From Candidatus Amesbacteria bacterium GW2011_GWC2_45_19 (GTDB lineage Bacteria > Patescibacteriota > Microgenomatia > CAZETR01 > Amesbacteraceae): a DNA stretch of 64,000 nucleotides. The position numbers and the translations under genes were made by a program. Positions 11,360-22,221 of this stretch are shown here, one piece after another. Numbering within the stretch: the first letter of the stretch is position 1; every line of letters begins with the position of its first letter. The stretch lies in the NCBI GenBank assembly GCA_001001555.1, contig LCKS01000004.1:36130-100129 (forward strand), given 5' to 3'. The notes under the pieces are model-generated. The model made no database searches, was not told the origin of the DNA, and saw only the letters and a list, made by a program, of their open reading frames with translations.

Positions 11360-11615
11360 ATTTCTTGGCGAGTCTTTGGGCTTCTTTTTTCCTAGCGATT
11401 TCAATGATTTGTAATGTTGAATATTTTTTAGAAATAGGATGATTTGCCAAAAGACCCTGCAGACTATCCCAATCATCCTCTGCCTTTTCCAAAAAAATGG
11501 TATTATCTTTAACTTTCGTCCATAATTTACTTCCTTTATTCAGTCCCAATAGGGAGACAATAGATACCGGCAAAGTAAGCTGATTTTTTGAAGTTAACGT
11601 CAATAATGTATTCAT
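11349..11615 (-). CDS. vapB: AbrB/MazE/SpoVT-type antitoxin VapB
   Basis: 88 aa; swapped-hairpin-like N-terminus SKNQLTLPVSIVSLLGL; 11-nt overlap with vapC. Confidence 0.65.
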   Translation of the reverse strand: MNTLLTLTSKNQLTLPVSIVSLLGLNKGSKLWTKVKDNTIFLEKAEDDWDSLQGLLANHPISKKYSTLQIIEIARKKEAQRLAKKYGK

Positions 11616-11618
11616 CCC

Positions 11619-12059
11619 TTACTTTATAACATCTTCCTTACTCTTTGTCAACATCCTTACTTTTATCCTAGAGACCACCAGCATGTATCCGTTGGATTTG
11701 AGCCAGGAGGAGATTTCGTCAACGGAGAGATTTTGATTGGCTACAGAAACCATAAATTTCACTATCTCTTTCTCTCTAGCTGTGATTTTAACTCCGTTTA
11801 GGGATAGAAAGTTGTAAGTAGTAATAAAAGCGGTGCGTTTATTACCATCTATGAAGGGATGATTTTTAACGATAGACTGGATGAGGGCTCCGGCTTTGAG
11901 AAAAATGTCGGGGTATAAGTCCTGGCCATCGAAAGTGGCGAAAGGGCGGAAAATAGCTGACTGAAGCATACTGGTATCCCGAATACCAGAGGATCCGCCG
12001 TATTTTTGGATTGCCCGCTCGTGAACTGCCAAAACCTGTTTAAGAGTAAAACTTATCAC
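11619..12059 (-). CDS. doc: Doc (death-on-curing) Fic-family toxin
   Basis: Fic motif HPFIDGNKRTA; 146 aa. Confidence 0.8.
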   Translation of the reverse strand: MISFTLKQVLAVHERAIQKYGGSSGIRDTSMLQSAIFRPFATFDGQDLYPDIFLKAGALIQSIVKNHPFIDGNKRTAFITTYNFLSLNGVKITAREKEIVKFMVSVANQNLSVDEISSWLKSNGYMLVVSRIKVRMLTKSKEDVIK

Positions 12060-12307
12060 TGAAGTTGGGCTAGTTCTTTGAGAGCGTGACCATAGCGTTT
12101 TTCCACCTCTTTAATTAAATCAAACCACTCTTTATCCGGGGCGGTCGCATATTGGGTGGATCTGGGAATATGGGTAGAATAAGTGATAGATCCGTCTGTG
12201 TGGGCAACGGAAATTTTGGAATTTTTGGTGACTTTGTTTTTGGTGACAAAATCTCTTGGAAGAGTGACACCCAAAGAATTTCCAATTTGGACGACGGATT
12301 GGATCAT
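12056..12307 (-). CDS. AbrB/Phd-type antitoxin partner of Doc
   Basis: QIGNSLGVTLPRDFV swapped-hairpin motif; 4-nt overlap with doc. Confidence 0.65.
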   Translation of the reverse strand: MIQSVVQIGNSLGVTLPRDFVTKNKVTKNSKISVAHTDGSITYSTHIPRSTQYATAPDKEWFDLIKEVEKRYGHALKELAQLQ

Positions 12308-16934: not shown

Positions 16935-17564
16935 TCAAAATAAACTGGCTTGACTGGGAGTATTATCCTCTATTTTGGCTTGGGGCGCCAGCAGATTTTT
17001 TAATTTAACAAAGTCGGCTTTAAAAGCGTTCATCATGGTGGTACCACGCAGGGCGGCGGCCGGGTGATACATAGGAAATATGATTAGTTGATAGTTCATG
17101 GTTGATGGTTGATAGTAGCGGGCAACGCCGTGGATTTGGGAAATGGTGACGCCGGGGATGAATTTGGTCATACTGAAACGGCCCAATGTAACAATAATCT
17201 TGGGAGAAATAATTTTTATCTGCCGGTCCAGCCAATCGGCGCAGGCGGCAATTTCGTTATCAAACGGGTCGCGGTTGTCCGGAGGCCGGAATTTAACAAT
17301 ATTGGTAATATACACATCCCCGCGCTTTAGGCCTAAAACTTCCAGTAGAGTTTTCTCCAACAACATCCCGGCTTGACCGACAAAAGGGCGGCCCTGCATA
17401 TCCTCGTTATACCCCGGCGATTCGCCGATAAACATAATGGCCGCGTCAGGATCACCCTCTCCGGGTACAGCGTGCGTAGCATTTTTAGCAATATCCAAGC
17501 CCTTAAAGGCTTTTATTTCCCGGGCAATTTTCTCCAGCTCTTGCTTTTTTTGATCCGTAGTCAT
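16935..17564 (-). CDS. uracil-DNA glycosylase family 4
   Basis: GEGDPDAAIMFIGESPG and GRPFVGQAG motifs. Confidence 0.8.
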   Translation of the reverse strand: MTTDQKKQELEKIAREIKAFKGLDIAKNATHAVPGEGDPDAAIMFIGESPGYNEDMQGRPFVGQAGMLLEKTLLEVLGLKRGDVYITNIVKFRPPDNRDPFDNEIAACADWLDRQIKIISPKIIVTLGRFSMTKFIPGVTISQIHGVARYYQPSTMNYQLIIFPMYHPAAALRGTTMMNAFKADFVKLKNLLAPQAKIEDNTPSQASLF

Positions 17565-17586
17565 CTCTCAATAACTCCCTCTCATT

Positions 17587-17610
17587 CTCCCTCTTAATCT
17601 AAGAGGGAGA
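17587..17610. repeat. palindromic hairpin TCTCCCTCTTA-atc-TAAGAGGGAGA overlapping the last codons and stop of the phosphoesterase gene (related to the CCCCCTCCTAA hairpin family)
   Basis: Perfect 10-bp stem; the minus strand reads ...SLLD* through it. Confidence 0.5.
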
Positions 17611-18100
17611 CGCTAGTATAACTGCTAGATAAGGTGTCATAAATTCCAAAAGATGCGGGAGCTAGTTTGCCGGAAATGATGCCGCAGATGGAGCCGGGGT
17701 TGGCAAGCAAAGTTTTGCCTACTTGCTCTTGATAGGCTTTGTGGGTGTGACCGTGGAAAACCGCGTCATAATCTCCCGTTCCGGCCAAAAGTTTGCCGAG
17801 TTTGGGATAATGACAGAAGGCGATTTTTTTACTTTCCAATTCTACTTCGGCAAATTCTTTGGTTAGAGGCCAAAGCTGGACAGCTTTTAATTTTTCGGAA
17901 ATGGCAAATTGATCCTCATCATTATTCCCAAAACAAGCATAAATTGGTAAGGCTGATTCGGCTAAAATTACAGCCGTAAATGGAGCGCAAAAGTCTCCGC
18001 AAAAAATTATGACCTCGCATTTTTGCTCTTTGATTATTTGAATCGCCTTCCGCAGGTTCCAAATATGATCGTGGGTATCTGATAAAACTGCTATTTTCAT
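17594..18100 (-). CDS. metallophosphoesterase (YfcE/MJ0936 family)
   Basis: MKIAVLSDTHD...GDF...GNND...GHTH motif set. Confidence 0.75.
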   Translation of the reverse strand: MKIAVLSDTHDHIWNLRKAIQIIKEQKCEVIIFCGDFCAPFTAVILAESALPIYACFGNNDEDQFAISEKLKAVQLWPLTKEFAEVELESKKIAFCHYPKLGKLLAGTGDYDAVFHGHTHKAYQEQVGKTLLANPGSICGIISGKLAPASFGIYDTLSSSYTSVSLLD

Positions 18101-18219
18101 TAGTAGGTGGGCAGGAATTGTTTGAGATTGTTTTTCATTTCCACACCCAATGGTCCGTAGTCATAAAAGTCCTGCAAGCCTTCGTTTTTGCACAGGCTGA
18201 CAATTTTTTCCATGAGGTC
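18100..18219 (-). pseudogene. remnant of lon-like gene 3' end. The last 28 nt are nearly identical to 19100..19127.
   Basis: Minus-strand [43 protein letters not shown] ends NLKQFLPTY*, identical to the C-terminus of ORF 19096..20076. Its TAA overlaps the ATG of the phosphoesterase gene. Confidence 0.5.
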
Positions 18220-18383
18220 CATGTGTTTAGTTTACAACAAAAAGCTCTTCTTTCCAATTCCGACTCGATTTGTCGTTTGGCGCGGCCGCGACTAACGGCA
18301 AAATTGACGGGTACTGACAAATAGTTTGTGGGGATAAAATACTTCAGTAGTTTTCTCCAACTCAATTTTCTTTTCATCGGTAG

Positions 18384-18803
18384 TCATCGTAAGGGGTTGA
18401 TTACTTTAATATCTTTCATAGGATAGTGCTTGATGTTCATGGTCAAAAGAGTCAGTTTGTGAATTTTGCAAGTTGCGGCGATTAAATAATCTATTAAGTT
18501 AATATTAACGTTTCGATACTTATTCCAATACTCTCCTGCCAGTTTTGCTATCGCGAAGTTTATGGGGACCTGGTTATGCCACTTGAAAAAGTGTCTGTTC
18601 GAGGCCTCTTCTTCGGGAAAAGAATTTTTGTAAATTTCGCCAACCGTTAAGATAGAGATAGCTACGAACTGATCATCCACTATTTTTGAAACTGCTTCAA
18701 TTGCCCTTTCATTCCCCCTGATTATCCAAATTGAGACATCTGAATCAAGTAAAAATCTATCTTTCCTTTTTGGGCTTGGCATAGGGAATATATGAATAAT
18801 CAC
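18384..18803 (-). CDS. PIN-domain toxin (VapC-like)
   Basis: FLLDSDVSIWIIRG N-terminus and DYLIAATCKIHKLTLLTMNIKHY C-terminus; AT-rich. Confidence 0.7.
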   Translation of the reverse strand: MIIHIFPMPSPKRKDRFLLDSDVSIWIIRGNERAIEAVSKIVDDQFVAISILTVGEIYKNSFPEEEASNRHFFKWHNQVPINFAIAKLAGEYWNKYRNVNINLIDYLIAATCKIHKLTLLTMNIKHYPMKDIKVINPLR

Positions 18804-19068
18804 GGTTAGTTGCGGCCCGGCCTTCGTTTACCCAGTTTACAATGTTTTCCATGTTTTCCCATCCAGGCCGGCTTCTTACGCCCAACACACCGGTAAACTT
18901 TCTCAACGCATCCGCATAAGAAACTTTTCTCTTTCTCAATTTCAACTGCTTGCCAACCGCCATAGCCACAAAACGGCTTCTTTGCCTAGTGGACACTTGA
19001 TCTTTCAGGTCTGAGTATAAGTCCCAAGGCAACGTAAAATTCACTCTAGTCGTTGTTTGCATATACAC
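18757..19068 (-). CDS. ribbon-helix-helix (CopG-like) antitoxin
   Basis: TRVNFTLPWDLYSDLKDQVSTRQRSRFVAMAV RHH pattern; overlaps the PIN gene. Confidence 0.6.
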   Translation of the reverse strand: MYMQTTTRVNFTLPWDLYSDLKDQVSTRQRSRFVAMAVGKQLKLRKRKVSYADALRKFTGVLGVRSRPGWENMENIVNWVNEGRAATNRDYSYIPYAKPKKER

Positions 19069-19095
19069 ACTTTATATCACCATTATACACACTTG

Positions 19096-20076
19096 TCAAT
19101 AGGTGGGTAGGAATTGTTTGAGGTTGTCGGCGGTAATATAAAATTGGTTGCCTTTGCCTTCGACTATGAGTTTGGCGGTTTTGCGGACGATGCCCTGGAT
19201 AGTGCGCTCCAGAGTGCGGATACCGGCGTCAAAGCCTAGGGGGCGGACGATTTGGGGCCAAACGGCGTCGTCGATTTTGAGAGCTGAATCCGGAAGAGAA
19301 GCATTTTTAATCTCGATGGGCAAAACGTAATCGCGGGCGATGGTGATTTTTTCCTCGTCGTTGTAGGAGGGCATAGTCAGAGGCTCGAGCCGGTCCATGA
19401 CGGCAGCAGAAATATTGGTAGTGTTGTTACAAGTGGCAATAAACAGAACCTGGGAGAGATCGAAAGGATAATCAATGTAATGATCGGTAAAACCGGCATT
19501 TTGTTCCGGGTCGAGAAGCTCGACCAATACACCCATGATTTCAGAGCGGGCGGAATCGGCCACCCGGTCGATTTCGTCCAGTAAAATTACCGGGTTTTTG
19601 GTTTGGGCCCGGCGCAGATTTTTGATGATTTGGCCCGGCTCGGCGTCGGGGTAAACCCGGGACTGGCCACGCAAGTCTAAGGCCAAGCCCATGCCGCCAA
19701 AGGGAATGCGCACAAATTTTCTGCCCATAGCTTCGGCGATGGATTTGGCCAGAGTGGTTTTGCCGGTACCCACCAGGCCCACCAGCAATAAAATCGGGGC
19801 GTGATAAATGGTGCTTTTTTGCTGATTTAGGATCAGGACTGAGAGATATTCCAGAATGCGTTGTTTTAAATCTTCCAGGCCGTAGTGGTGCCGGTCGAGA
19901 ATTTGCTTGGCGTGACCCAAGTCTAAAATATCTTTGGTGGTTTTGTCCCAGGGAAGATTAGTAATCCAATCAATATAGTGGGCCGCCTGCTCGGGATTGG
20001 TGCCCCGAGTCAAAACCTCTTCGGCTTTGGCCCGCAGGTCATCCGGCAGCGTGGCAGTCTTTAACTTGTCATCCAT
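19096..20076 (-). CDS. Lon-like AAA+ ATPase module (no N-domain, no S16 protease domain)
   Basis: Residue-level match to the Lon AAA+ region: HYGLEDLKQRILEYL, GTGKTTLAKSIAEAMGRKFVRI, ILLDEIDRV, LDPEQNAGFTDHY, ATCNNTTNI, DRLEPL. It ends ([10 protein letters not shown]) exactly where canonical Lon continues into the protease domain. Confidence 0.75.
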   Translation of the reverse strand: MDDKLKTATLPDDLRAKAEEVLTRGTNPEQAAHYIDWITNLPWDKTTKDILDLGHAKQILDRHHYGLEDLKQRILEYLSVLILNQQKSTIYHAPILLLVGLVGTGKTTLAKSIAEAMGRKFVRIPFGGMGLALDLRGQSRVYPDAEPGQIIKNLRRAQTKNPVILLDEIDRVADSARSEIMGVLVELLDPEQNAGFTDHYIDYPFDLSQVLFIATCNNTTNISAAVMDRLEPLTMPSYNDEEKITIARDYVLPIEIKNASLPDSALKIDDAVWPQIVRPLGFDAGIRTLERTIQGIVRKTAKLIVEGKGNQFYITADNLKQFLPTY

Positions 20077-20091
20077 TGGTTCTAGTTTACA

Positions 20092-22221
20092 TCAAAAGCG
20101 GCGGCGGGTGTCGCGGCGCATGGGGGCACGGAAGCGGTTGTCGGGGCGCCCGCCTTCGCTAAAGCTACGGCGAGGTGAAGGACGGGGCTCACGGGCTTTG
20201 ACTAGAGGCTGGCCGGCCGCGTCGAAAAGCATGGACAGGCTGATACGGTTTTGAGCGTCGATTTCGATGACCCACACCCGGACTTTATCGCCTTCGTGGA
20301 CAATCTGATTGGGATCGGCCACAAAACCCTGGGCCATCTGGGAAACGTGGACCAGGCCGTCCTTGCCGGGCAAAATATTTACAAAAGCGCCAAAAGGCTG
20401 GATGCGGGCCACGGTGCCTTCATAGATTTCTCCGGCTTTGACTTCCTGGCCCAAGGATGCAATCCAACTAATAGCGCCGTTTACACCATCCTGGTCGGTA
20501 CCGGAGATAAAAACGGAGCCGTTATCATTGACATCGATTGACACACTGAAGTCGGCCATGAGTTTTTTGATGACTTTGCCGCCCGGACCGATCAGCTCGC
20601 CGATCTTGTCCACGGGAATAGTGACCACATGAATTTTGGGAGCGTACTGGGATAATTCTTTTCTGGGTCCGGGAATAGTCTTGAGCATGGTTTGCAAAAT
20701 CTGCATGCGGGCGGTTCTAGCCCGGGCGAATGTTTGTTCACAAATATCCAAGGTTAATCCGGGAATTTTGACGTCTAATTGAATGGCGGTGATACCTGTT
20801 TCTGTGCCGGCGACTTTAAAATCCATATCGCCGTAGTGATCTTCCCCACCATTAATATCTGTCAACAGCTGGCGGTCAACCAGACCGATAGAAATACCGG
20901 CTACGGGAGCAATGATAGGAACTCCGGCGTCCATCAAGGACAAGGTTGAACCGCAGGTACTGGCCATGGAAGTGGAGCCGTCGGAGGACATGATTTCCGA
21001 AACCACCCGGATGGCGTAGGGAAAATCAGTTTCAGCAGGAATAACCGGGGCCAAGGCCCTTTCAGCCAAAGCTCCGTGACCGATTTCCCGCCGGCCGGGC
21101 GAACCCATGCGGCCGGTTTCTCCGGTGGAAAACGGGGGGAAATTGTAATGGCACATGTAACGTTTGGTGTCTTCTCCTTCGGCCGATTCCAGAGATTGAG
21201 ACAGAGAGGGGGCGCCGAGAGTTGTGACGGTTAGGACTTGTGTTTCTCCTCTTTGAAAAATGGCAGAGCCGTGAACCCGGGGCAAAACTCCAACTTCGGC
21301 AGAAAGCGGGCGGATTTCATCCAATTTGCGGCCGTCGGGGCGCTGGCCGGCCAGAATATTTTTGCGGAAAGCGGCAGAAAACAATTCTTCAACTATTTCT
21401 TTGACTTCTGCCTGGTCCTGGGGATCAAAGCTGGAAACGAGAGGTTCTATTTCTGCCTCATCCTGCAAATTTTTGGCGGCTTTGCGAACTTGGGCCACCA
21501 GTTCAGAATTATGATCTTTAGCGGTAACAGAAATTTTGTCCCGGCCAATTTCTTTGACCAAGTTATTGATGAGGGAGATAATTTTTTTGTTTTCGGCAAA
21601 CCCGGTTTTCAAAGCTTCCAGGATAGTAGCTTCCGGGACTTGATTGGCCCCGGCCTCAATCATAGGAATAACAGTTTCGGAACTGGTGACAACCAAGTCC
21701 AAATCCACTCCAGCGCGGTTTCCGTTTTCGGGGTTAATCACCAACTGGCCGTCGACCAATCCCATACGAACTGCGGCCACGGGTCCATTCCAGGGAATTG
21801 GGGAAATAGCCAAAGCGGCCGAGGTGGCAATGAGACCTAAAACGTCGGCATCGTTGGCGGTGTCTACGGAGAGGACGGTAATAATTACCTGGACTTCGTT
21901 TTTAAGCCCTTTGGGGAAAAGAGGGCGGATGGAACGGTCAATGAGCCGAGCTGATAAAACTTCGGCGTCGGTAGGGCGGCCTTCGCGTTTAACCCAACGC
22001 GAACCTTTGATGCGGCCGCCGGCATATAAACGCTCTTGGTACTCGACAGATAAAGGAAAATAATCTTTTTTCAGGTCTTCTTTACCCAGAACGACAGTGG
22101 CCAAAAGCGAAGTGTCCCCATAACGGGCAAAAACGGCGCTGGTGGCACGAGAAGCGAACCGACCAACCTCTAAGGTTAAAGTACGTCCGGCTAGTTCTAA
22201 AGTTTTACTGACTAATTTCAT
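20092..22221 (-). CDS. pnp: polynucleotide phosphorylase
   Basis: two RNase PH domains, KH and S1 domains; 709 aa. Confidence 0.9.

Follow-up and report, generated by a model that had tools for sequence, protein, structure and literature searches.

In the 64,000-nucleotide stretch of contig LCKS01000004.1 analysed here (the window; Candidatus Amesbacteria bacterium GW2011_GWC2_45_19), a 28-bp direct repeat flanks a putative toxin-antitoxin (TA) cassette, made of a ribbon-helix-helix (RHH)-like gene and a PIN-domain gene, between a Lon-like gene and a metallophosphoesterase (MPE) gene. We propose, with a probability of about 0.6, that this locus is a composite: two older versions of the interval separating the Lon-like gene from a uracil-DNA glycosylase (UDG) gene would have been joined by microhomology-mediated illegitimate recombination in a hotspot. 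Each of the fragments was identified, both parental arrangements are found in relatives (loci and contigs from other assemblies carry L numbers) and the microhomology can be read in the DNA; from these observations we infer an order of events and an enzymology. The first-pass annotation of this DNA had the cassette inserted between the two genes in one step, with a duplication of their junction. This scenario is not borne out, since one copy of the repeat (copy A) is continuous with glyS, a UDG head follows the PIN gene, and the RHH-PIN pair is old at this site in L012 and L015.

The 28-bp repeat

The repeat is real and non-random, and it is not an assembly artefact. Its two copies (Table 1) are identical at 26 of 28 positions, with 2 mismatches, the pair is recovered by blastn with an E-value of 6e-4, and zero comparable matches were obtained across 100 dinucleotide-preserving shuffles of the window, which confirms the repeat at both sites where the first-pass annotation had placed it. 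The reading of copy B as the C-terminus of the Lon-like gene also stands (it encodes ...NLKQFLPT and the first two bases of the last Tyr codon of the 326-aa gene), except that the stop codon had been counted as part of the copy: the stop codons fall beyond the repeat and differ, TAT-TGA behind copy B versus TAC-TAA behind copy A. As had been described, copy A ends a 40-codon open reading frame (ORF) whose TAA overlaps the ATG of the MPE gene as TAATG. Among the relatives of the Amesbacteria clade with a recognisable Lon tail (L009-L015), NLKQFLPTY followed by the stop ends the Lon protein in every case, and copy B is therefore the native one and copy A the orphan.

A mis-join at the repeat, which had been named earlier as a risk, was checked by comparing the 1.5-kb stretch 17900-19400 between assemblies. 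This stretch is matched base for base in contigs of four different ENA samples and in NCBI GCA_001002655.1, that is, in five independent assemblies from different samples and assemblers, and the flanking genes are carried by at least 24 contigs. The length of the repeat, 28 bp, is far below the k-mer sizes of 127 and 141 read from the contig names (k127_, k141_). An assembly artefact is excluded because the stretch is identical in the five assemblies.

Copy A is a joint between glyS and lon

The upstream 14-16 nt of copy A (in the gene direction; 18116-18131) are continuous with a 5' fragment of glyS, the gene of glycyl-tRNA synthetase (GlyRS), and not with lon, so that the apparent duplication is a chimeric glyS::lon joint formed at a microhomology. 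The 40-codon ORF consists of the glyS start, 35 glyS codons and 5 Lon-only codons. Its residues 15-35 agree with solved GlyRS at 18 of 21 positions, phmmer aligns it to the Thermus GlyRS (1ATI/1B76) with an E-value of 2e-6, and the DNA of the fragment is ~80% identical to the glyS 5' ends at three Amesbacteria recO-glyS loci. NCBI annotates the ORF as 'Glycine-tRNA ligase' in the record of Candidatus Amesbacteria bacterium GW2011_GWB1_47_26; judging by its make-up, the 37/40-aa ORF that public records carry under this name is a pseudogene fragment. No full-length glyS was found within the window by blastn.

The microhomology common to glyS and lon measures 14 nt (AAYCTCAAACAATT), and the two genes share it because N-L-K-Q occurs in both proteins, natively as NNLKQ in GlyRS and as DNLKQ in the Lon tail, which at 19112-19125 reads AACCTCAAACAATT. 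The lon' fragment left at the joint is 28 nt long. No recognisable Shine-Dalgarno sequence for MPE was found in this orphan Lon tail, and the chimeric ORF may therefore act as a leader that keeps MPE translationally coupled.

Two observations concern glyS in other genomes. On a JGI contig (L089:2050-2075) the gene has an in-frame TGA at a conserved GlyRS Trp (NNLKKL, stop, WRW...), after which good GlyRS sequence continues in frame; this TGA may reflect an error of sequencing or a recent nonsense mutation, or it may be read as a sense codon. In one Amesbacteria genome two unannotated genes of 295 and 134 aa (L093:3546-4910) split the usually adjacent recO and glyS, so the source locus of the glyS fragment is also variable.

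An orphan UDG head and a filler

The first 38 nt of the UDG gene (17528-17565) recur at 18351-18388 with 79% identity (blastn, E=0.004), a second direct repeat that was not noticed in the first-pass annotation. The ATG of this orphan head overlaps the PIN stop as ATGA, and in alignment with the UDG heads of relatives the homology stops after codon 12. In L015 the same ATGA junction leads from PIN into a full-length UDG. The position of the orphan head directly after PIN therefore indicates that the cassette half of the locus once ran PIN-UDG, as in L015.

Between the UDG and glyS fragments lies a filler, X, for which several origins were tried and rejected. Its assignment to the 3' end of recO, a gene that precedes glyS in Amesbacteria, is not supported: likeness to glyS leaders is limited to ~12 nt before the ATG, and the RecO C-termini align unconvincingly. 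A likeness of 22/26 to the pnp 3' end or the pnp-lon spacer is equalled by chance alignments elsewhere in the window, and a palindrome in X (18269-18302), tried as a possible terminator or structured element, did not exceed shuffled sequence in folding (z-score -0.13).

Two contigs from other assemblies end at this part of the locus. L007, a strain variant (L007:1-130, ~18384-18510), is ~90% identical to the window over the last ~90 nt of PIN that it covers and 100% identical from the PIN end on, and L008 has its first base precisely at the orphan UDG ATG (18387). These contigs hint that the scar has breakpoints at the population level, one inside PIN and one at the PIN/udg' junction.

The Lon-UDG interval in relatives

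The interval between Lon and UDG is a gene-turnover hotspot in Amesbacteria, hypervariable and with at least 8 different contents. Lon is followed by MPE and then UDG in L101, by MPE and further genes in L108, L013, L018, L104 and L106, and directly by UDG in L014 and L017. A deformylase-VTT-HD block separates Lon and UDG in L009. L015 carries RHH-PIN alone between them, with PIN and UDG overlapping as ATGA, and L012 carries RHH-PIN and a 140-aa gene. An MNT-HepT cassette comes after Lon in L010 and L090-L092, followed by the orphan tail, a HIT gene and UDG, and also in L011, whose contig ends inside HepT. The remaining type, L099 and L100, reads VTT, a 205-nt spacer, MPE and UDG. Lon-MPE adjacency occurs in Woesebacteria as well.

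Uninterrupted Lon-MPE junctions, the empty sites that an insertion would require, were thus found in L101, L108 and L013. The intact junction of L108 (...CAATTCCTCCCCACCTACTAATGAAAATAGCAGT) is identical at 33 of 34 positions to the orphan-tail/MPE junction of the window, with Lon and MPE only ~70% identical overall to the window's, and in L013 the stop and start overlap as TGATG. Together with the Lon-MPE-UDG order of L101, these junctions bear out one part of the earlier interpretation, namely an ancestral Lon-like gene running into the phosphoesterase with overlapping stop and start; gene order and junction sequence place MPE in its ancestral position upstream of UDG.

The other parental arrangement is that of L015; both there and in L012 the RHH-PIN pair has the same position, left junction and promoter region and no orphan tail. 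Identity to the window is 83% for RHH, 80% for PIN and 83% for Lon in L012, and 70%, 72% and 72%, respectively, in L015 (~28% DNA divergence); at the protein level the PIN orthologues at this position are 76% (L012) and 69% (L015) identical. Since RHH-PIN has diverged like the flanking core genes, it is an old resident of the interval and not a recent insertion. Moreover, the Lon and RNase J trees are incongruent: the Lon of L009 (CAYHNU010000013.1) is 94% identical to the window's in amino acids, whereas the RNase J encoded 2 kb from it has only 65% identity and clusters with that of the distant L015. Recombination between divergent lineages thus takes place at this site, and the L009 locus is a recombinant with its breakpoint in the variable interval.

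Further variants were seen in this interval. In L012 (L012:6680-7160) PIN and UDG are separated by the 140-aa ORF, which contains an HExxH motif and to which no Pfam family could be assigned. An ATGA marks each of its ends, one in the PIN stop region and the other where its stop overlaps the UDG start; here, too, an insertion sits precisely on a stop/start junction. At L099:344-547 and in L100, the closest MPE homologue (92% aa identity) is preceded by a VTT-domain membrane gene and the 205-nt non-coding spacer, which has no Rfam match, and not by a Lon tail; its homology to the window starts exactly at the MPE ATG.

The orphan tail in a sister species

The orphan tail, including its glyS-derived AAAAACAAT, is also found in Ca. 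Amesbacteria GW2011_GWA1_47_20 (L010) and on three metagenome contigs (L090-L092). It is identical to that of the window at 38 of 39 positions, with the core genes there only ~80% identical; between the two species, similarly close 39-nt windows account for 12 of the 5299 in neighbouring core genes (0.23%). In the sister species the tail stands between the MNT-HepT cassette and a downstream HIT-like gene, which it overlaps as TGATG. At this place (L010:2664-3805, L090-L092) the MNT (NTP_transf_2) and HepT genes after Lon are succeeded by a mini-ORF of 16 codons. It starts within the HepT coding sequence, with its ATG 7 nt before the first base of the HepT stop, and its TGA overlaps the HIT-like ATG. 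From these overlaps, the mini-ORF could be a translational-coupling relay.

A second tail copy with up to 6 mismatches was sought in L009-L018 and L092, where only the window type and the L010 type have one, and a metagenome scan for other KNN-prefixed orphan tails returned only the three contigs of the L010 haplotype. Synonymous conservation, compared by eye between coupled and uncoupled Lon tails, has no clear pattern. The glyS-derived prefix, being shared, speaks for a glyS::lon joint that arose once, after which both neighbours would have been replaced; the end of homology at the ATG would be accounted for by crossovers inside the tail. The 33/34 match to L108, in turn, suggests a nucleotide-level constraint on the tail over a recent transfer.

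The TA cassette

The description of the cassette in the first-pass annotation holds in part. The PIN domain is well recognised by PF01850 (41.9 bits for a cut-off of 23.6), with scores of 20-30 bits, all below cut-off, for the VapC equivalogs of NCBIfam, and the gene overlaps the 3' end of the antitoxin gene by 26 nt. The RHH fold of the antitoxin is weakly supported. Its match to PF07878 (RHH_5) reaches E=0.034 and 14.3 bits for a cut-off of 26, five antitoxin homologues have in common the strand-helix-helix pattern TR(V/I)N(F/I)TLP...R(Q/E)RS(R/S), a sequence search of the PDB gave no match, and the single-sequence AlphaFold2 model is of low confidence (pLDDT 47), too poor for a structure search. 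The 80-aa ORF that had been counted as a third gene is probably spurious, because no family was found for it in Pfam or NCBIfam and it overlaps the gene fragments in other frames.

A putative promoter/operator lies in front of the antitoxin gene. A -35 element, TTGACA (19094-19099), overlaps the Lon stop codon and is followed, after a 17-nt spacer, by a -10 element, TATAAA (19071-19076); two direct AGTGTGTATA repeats are present at 19084-19093 and 19062-19071. The antitoxin ATG (19060-19062) lies 8 nt past the -10, and a near-leaderless mRNA is therefore implied. This block is conserved in L012 and L015. A consensus promoter scanner made no call at 19060-19099, the reason being that the -10 ends in A. 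No terminator was predicted downstream of PIN.

Neighbouring genes

All genes of the region are on the minus strand, in the order pnp, Lon-like, RHH-like, PIN, 40-codon ORF, MPE, UDG, RNase J and FtsK (Table 1). The Lon-like protein aligns to positions 261-569 of the 795 of TIGR00763, that is, to the AAA+ module only; it has neither the N-terminal substrate domain nor the protease domain, and it ends exactly where the latter would begin. Because the gene is kept in a pnp-lon-(mpe)-(udg)-rnj synteny in at least 80 Microgenomates genomes, sequence and context identify it as a member of a real, widespread family and not as a truncated pseudogene. The stand-alone Lon AAA+ proteins of the window and of loci L009-L088 are ~326-348 aa long. 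One metagenome variant of the sister species has a Lon with an in-frame N-terminal deletion of 40 aa (286 aa; L090:13704-14564), and in L010 and L092 (L092:2830-3102) a YafQ-like toxin gene abuts the Lon start codon.

Elsewhere in the window (11450-12100), ~6 kb from the repeat, a small ORF with a weak MazE-antitoxin match in one public record lies in front of a Fic-domain gene (11619-12059); the two are probably another TA-like pair.

Table 1. Positions of the features of the locus in the window
Feature	Position	Strand	Details
UDG gene	16935-17564	minus	PF03167, E=6e-34
MPE gene	17594-18100	minus	YfcE-family, 168 aa; PF12850, E=5e-32; TIGR00040, 88.9 bits, above cut-off
Chimeric 40-codon ORF	18100-18222	minus	glyS start, glyS codons and Lon-only codons
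Repeat copy A, orphan Lon tail	18104-18131	minus	28 nt, TAGGTGGGCAGGAATTGTTTGAGATTGT
Microhomology joint	18116-18129	minus	AATCTCAAACAATT; N-L-K-Q-F codons, glyS codons ~43-47 / Lon tail
glyS 5' fragment	18116-18222	minus	start codon to codon ~47, in-frame 33-nt internal deletion, ~105 nt
80-aa ORF	18135-18377		crosses the UDG and glyS fragments, in other frames than theirs
Filler X	18223-18350	minus	128 nt, between the UDG and glyS fragments
Orphan UDG 5' fragment	18351-18387	minus	12 codons, MTTDEKKIELEK; repeat search and blastn
PIN-domain (VapC-like) toxin gene	18384-18782	minus	132 aa from ATG; PF01850, E=1.8e-10
Putative RHH-type antitoxin gene	18757-19062	minus	101 aa from ATG; PF07878 RHH_5, below cut-off
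Putative promoter/operator region	19060-19099	minus	read from the sequence, putative function
Lon-like AAA+-only gene	19096-20076	minus	326 aa, native C-terminus ...NLKQFLPTY and stop; Pfam AAA and Lon_lid
Repeat copy B, native 3' end of the Lon-like gene	19100-19127	minus	codons N318-Y326; tail shared by the Lon of L009-L016
pnp	20092-22221	minus	

Discussion

The anatomy of the locus is that of a scar: it contains the orphan fragments udg' (12 codons), glyS' (~105 nt) and lon' (28 nt), and a microhomology of 14 nt. In the composite reading, a first version of the interval, with the order Lon, RHH-PIN, UDG, would have been retained up to UDG codon 12, and a second, with the order Lon, MPE, UDG, from about the ninth-last Lon codon (N318) onward, the two being linked via ~235 nt of filler (18116-18350) made of ~128 nt of X and the glyS 5' fragment. 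The 28-bp repeat would then exist because the right-hand joint fell inside the Lon tail, where glyS and lon share their 14 nt. Two routes to such a product fit its anatomy and are the most likely: a related strain's DNA may have been taken up and joined by homology-facilitated illegitimate recombination (HFIR), or templates may have been switched serially in replication or repair. The product would have been viable since three features stayed intact, namely the C-terminus of Lon, the TAATG junction before MPE and the TA operon together with its putative promoter, and selection would have favoured products keeping them.

Several points weigh against this proposal. No significant match to filler X was found among the fetched loci or elsewhere in the window. 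No near-identical donor of the glyS fragment was found, the best being ~80% identical, and the event must therefore be old or the donor unsampled. The events could also have run in the other direction, an L015-type locus deriving from a window-type ancestor by deletion between the UDG heads. Finally, the presence of the orphan tail with a different cassette and a different downstream gene in the sister species calls either for additional replacements with their ends at the tail or for a constraint on the tail.

Other explanations were weighed on the same evidence. A mobile RHH-PIN cassette inserted once into the Lon-MPE junction, with a 28-bp target-site duplication (TSD), would account for the direct repeats around the cassette, for the uninterrupted junctions of relatives and for the AT-richness of PIN (37% GC, against 51-52% in the core-gene neighbours Lon, PNP and RNase J). 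Yet a repeat of 28 bp with 2 mismatches is not TSD-like, the glyS-continuous part of copy A (18116-18131) means that the repeat is not target sequence alone, and the segment, since it carries a UDG head, came from another version of the same locus. ORF, Pfam and repeat scans found no transposase, integrase or terminal inverted repeat in the flanked segment or at its boundaries, the pair sits at the same site in L012 and L015 without duplication and with the divergence of core genes, and the same orphan tail flanks another TA cassette in L010 and L090-L092, which also speaks against a duplicative insertion. We regard such an insertion as quite unlikely. An unlikely alternative is also that TA cassettes integrate or are exchanged (Campbell-type or site-specific) at the KNN-prefixed Lon tail, which would serve as a recombination or attachment site and leave one copy per side. 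It would explain how nearly the same 39-nt orphan (38/39) stands beside RHH-PIN here and beside MNT-HepT in L010 and L090-L092, with different genes downstream (MPE versus HIT) and core genes that are only ~80% identical. Against it, the orphan tail occurs in two haplotypes only, whose common glyS-derived prefix points to a single origin, L009 and L012-L018 have no second copy, and the site is without dyad symmetry. No recombinase was found either: the called genes within ~8 kb are all housekeeping or TA-type by Pfam and 10 further ORFs of the window gave likewise none, in a window that was not scanned exhaustively. The native Lon-MPE junction is, besides, kept at 33/34 in a lineage only 70% identical, so conservation need not mean recent transfer. 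A related idea, to which we give little credence, is that the last ~30 nt of the Lon-like gene form a portable, nucleotide-constrained junction module, either a translational-coupling adaptor or a recombination anchor, which CPR (Candidate Phyla Radiation) bacteria would retain or reuse. If this were true, different TA cassettes (RHH-PIN, MNT-HepT) could be swapped upstream of it and different genes (MPE, HIT) downstream without breaking expression, as in an integrase-free cassette-exchange site.

A tandem duplication of the whole Lon-to-UDG unit within the genome, followed by differential loss from each copy and requiring no foreign DNA, would produce the inner order of a UDG head followed by a Lon tail as its expected novel joint. 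It is nevertheless very unlikely, as identity between the orphan head and the resident UDG is only 79%, the orphan being closer to the L009 and L010 alleles, though the copies would start identical; moreover, the glyS fragment and X are left unexplained, and a prior coexistence of RHH-PIN and MPE, seen in no relative, would be required. As to a mis-join or collapsed repeat at the 28-mer, for which the repeat itself and the contigs L007 and L008 ending inside the region could be invoked, the five identical assemblies and the large k-mers make its probability negligible.

The composite reading can be compared with known recombination processes. In HFIR, foreign or variant DNA is anchored by homology on one side and joined at a short microhomology on the other, which leaves gene fragments and filler. 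The process was reportedly described in natural transformation by de Vries and Wackernagel (2002, PNAS 99:2094, PMC122324; cited in PMC8116780). In this locus Lon and UDG/RNase J, which are conserved, would serve as anchors, and the microhomology has 14 nt, whereas experimental joints are usually of 3-10 nt; the present joint is read from sequence, and several fragments (udg', X, glyS', lon') are stacked. Template switching of the type of microhomology-mediated break-induced replication (MMBIR) or fork stalling and template switching (FoSTeS) has been described mainly in eukaryotes and in E. coli stress models. The chain of short pieces from different loci (UDG head, glyS head, Lon tail), in one orientation and with microhomology at a joint, resembles its products, but the microhomology is demonstrable at one joint only and X has no matched template. 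Direct repeats around an accessory cassette at a gene boundary also recall transposon TSDs and integron attC sites, with the difference that no transposase or integrase is present and that the repeat is of 28 bp, imperfect, partly derived from a third gene and not recurring between neighbouring cassettes.

For the cassette itself, the small upstream gene, of putative DNA-binding type, overlapping the PIN toxin gene, and the putative own promoter with direct repeats, are as in VapBC systems; it differs from them in that the RHH fold is weakly supported and the VapC equivalogs score below cut-off, and its activity is putative. In Photorhabdus, TA systems lie in discrete, high-turnover chromosomal 'spots' between conserved genes, where related genomes can hold different TA families at one spot, and their acquisition is linked to transposases and integrases, a linkage that is short-lived (Belot et al. 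2026, Mol Biol Evol, PMC13617665). The interval between Lon and UDG, with RHH-PIN, MNT-HepT or no TA system, is similar to these spots; in contrast, it has no mobility gene, and RHH-PIN has persisted over ~28% DNA divergence.

The scar is instructive but ordinary, and the locus is not a new kind of system; the orphan tail conserved across species is mildly intriguing. For annotation, the consequence is that the 'glycine-tRNA ligase' ORF of public records is to be read as a gene fragment and that the 80-aa ORF is most likely not a gene. The locus also indicates that a chance match of four residues, NLKQ, between two unrelated proteins, Lon and GlyRS, can guide a recombination joint. It can be dissected as a fossil of how an accessory TA pair comes to join housekeeping genes in the tiny, mobile-element-poor genomes of CPR bacteria, here groundwater Amesbacteria. 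If the composite reading is right, versions of a hotspot would have been joined without transposase or integrase, and selection would have kept those products that preserve gene ends and stop/start overlaps.

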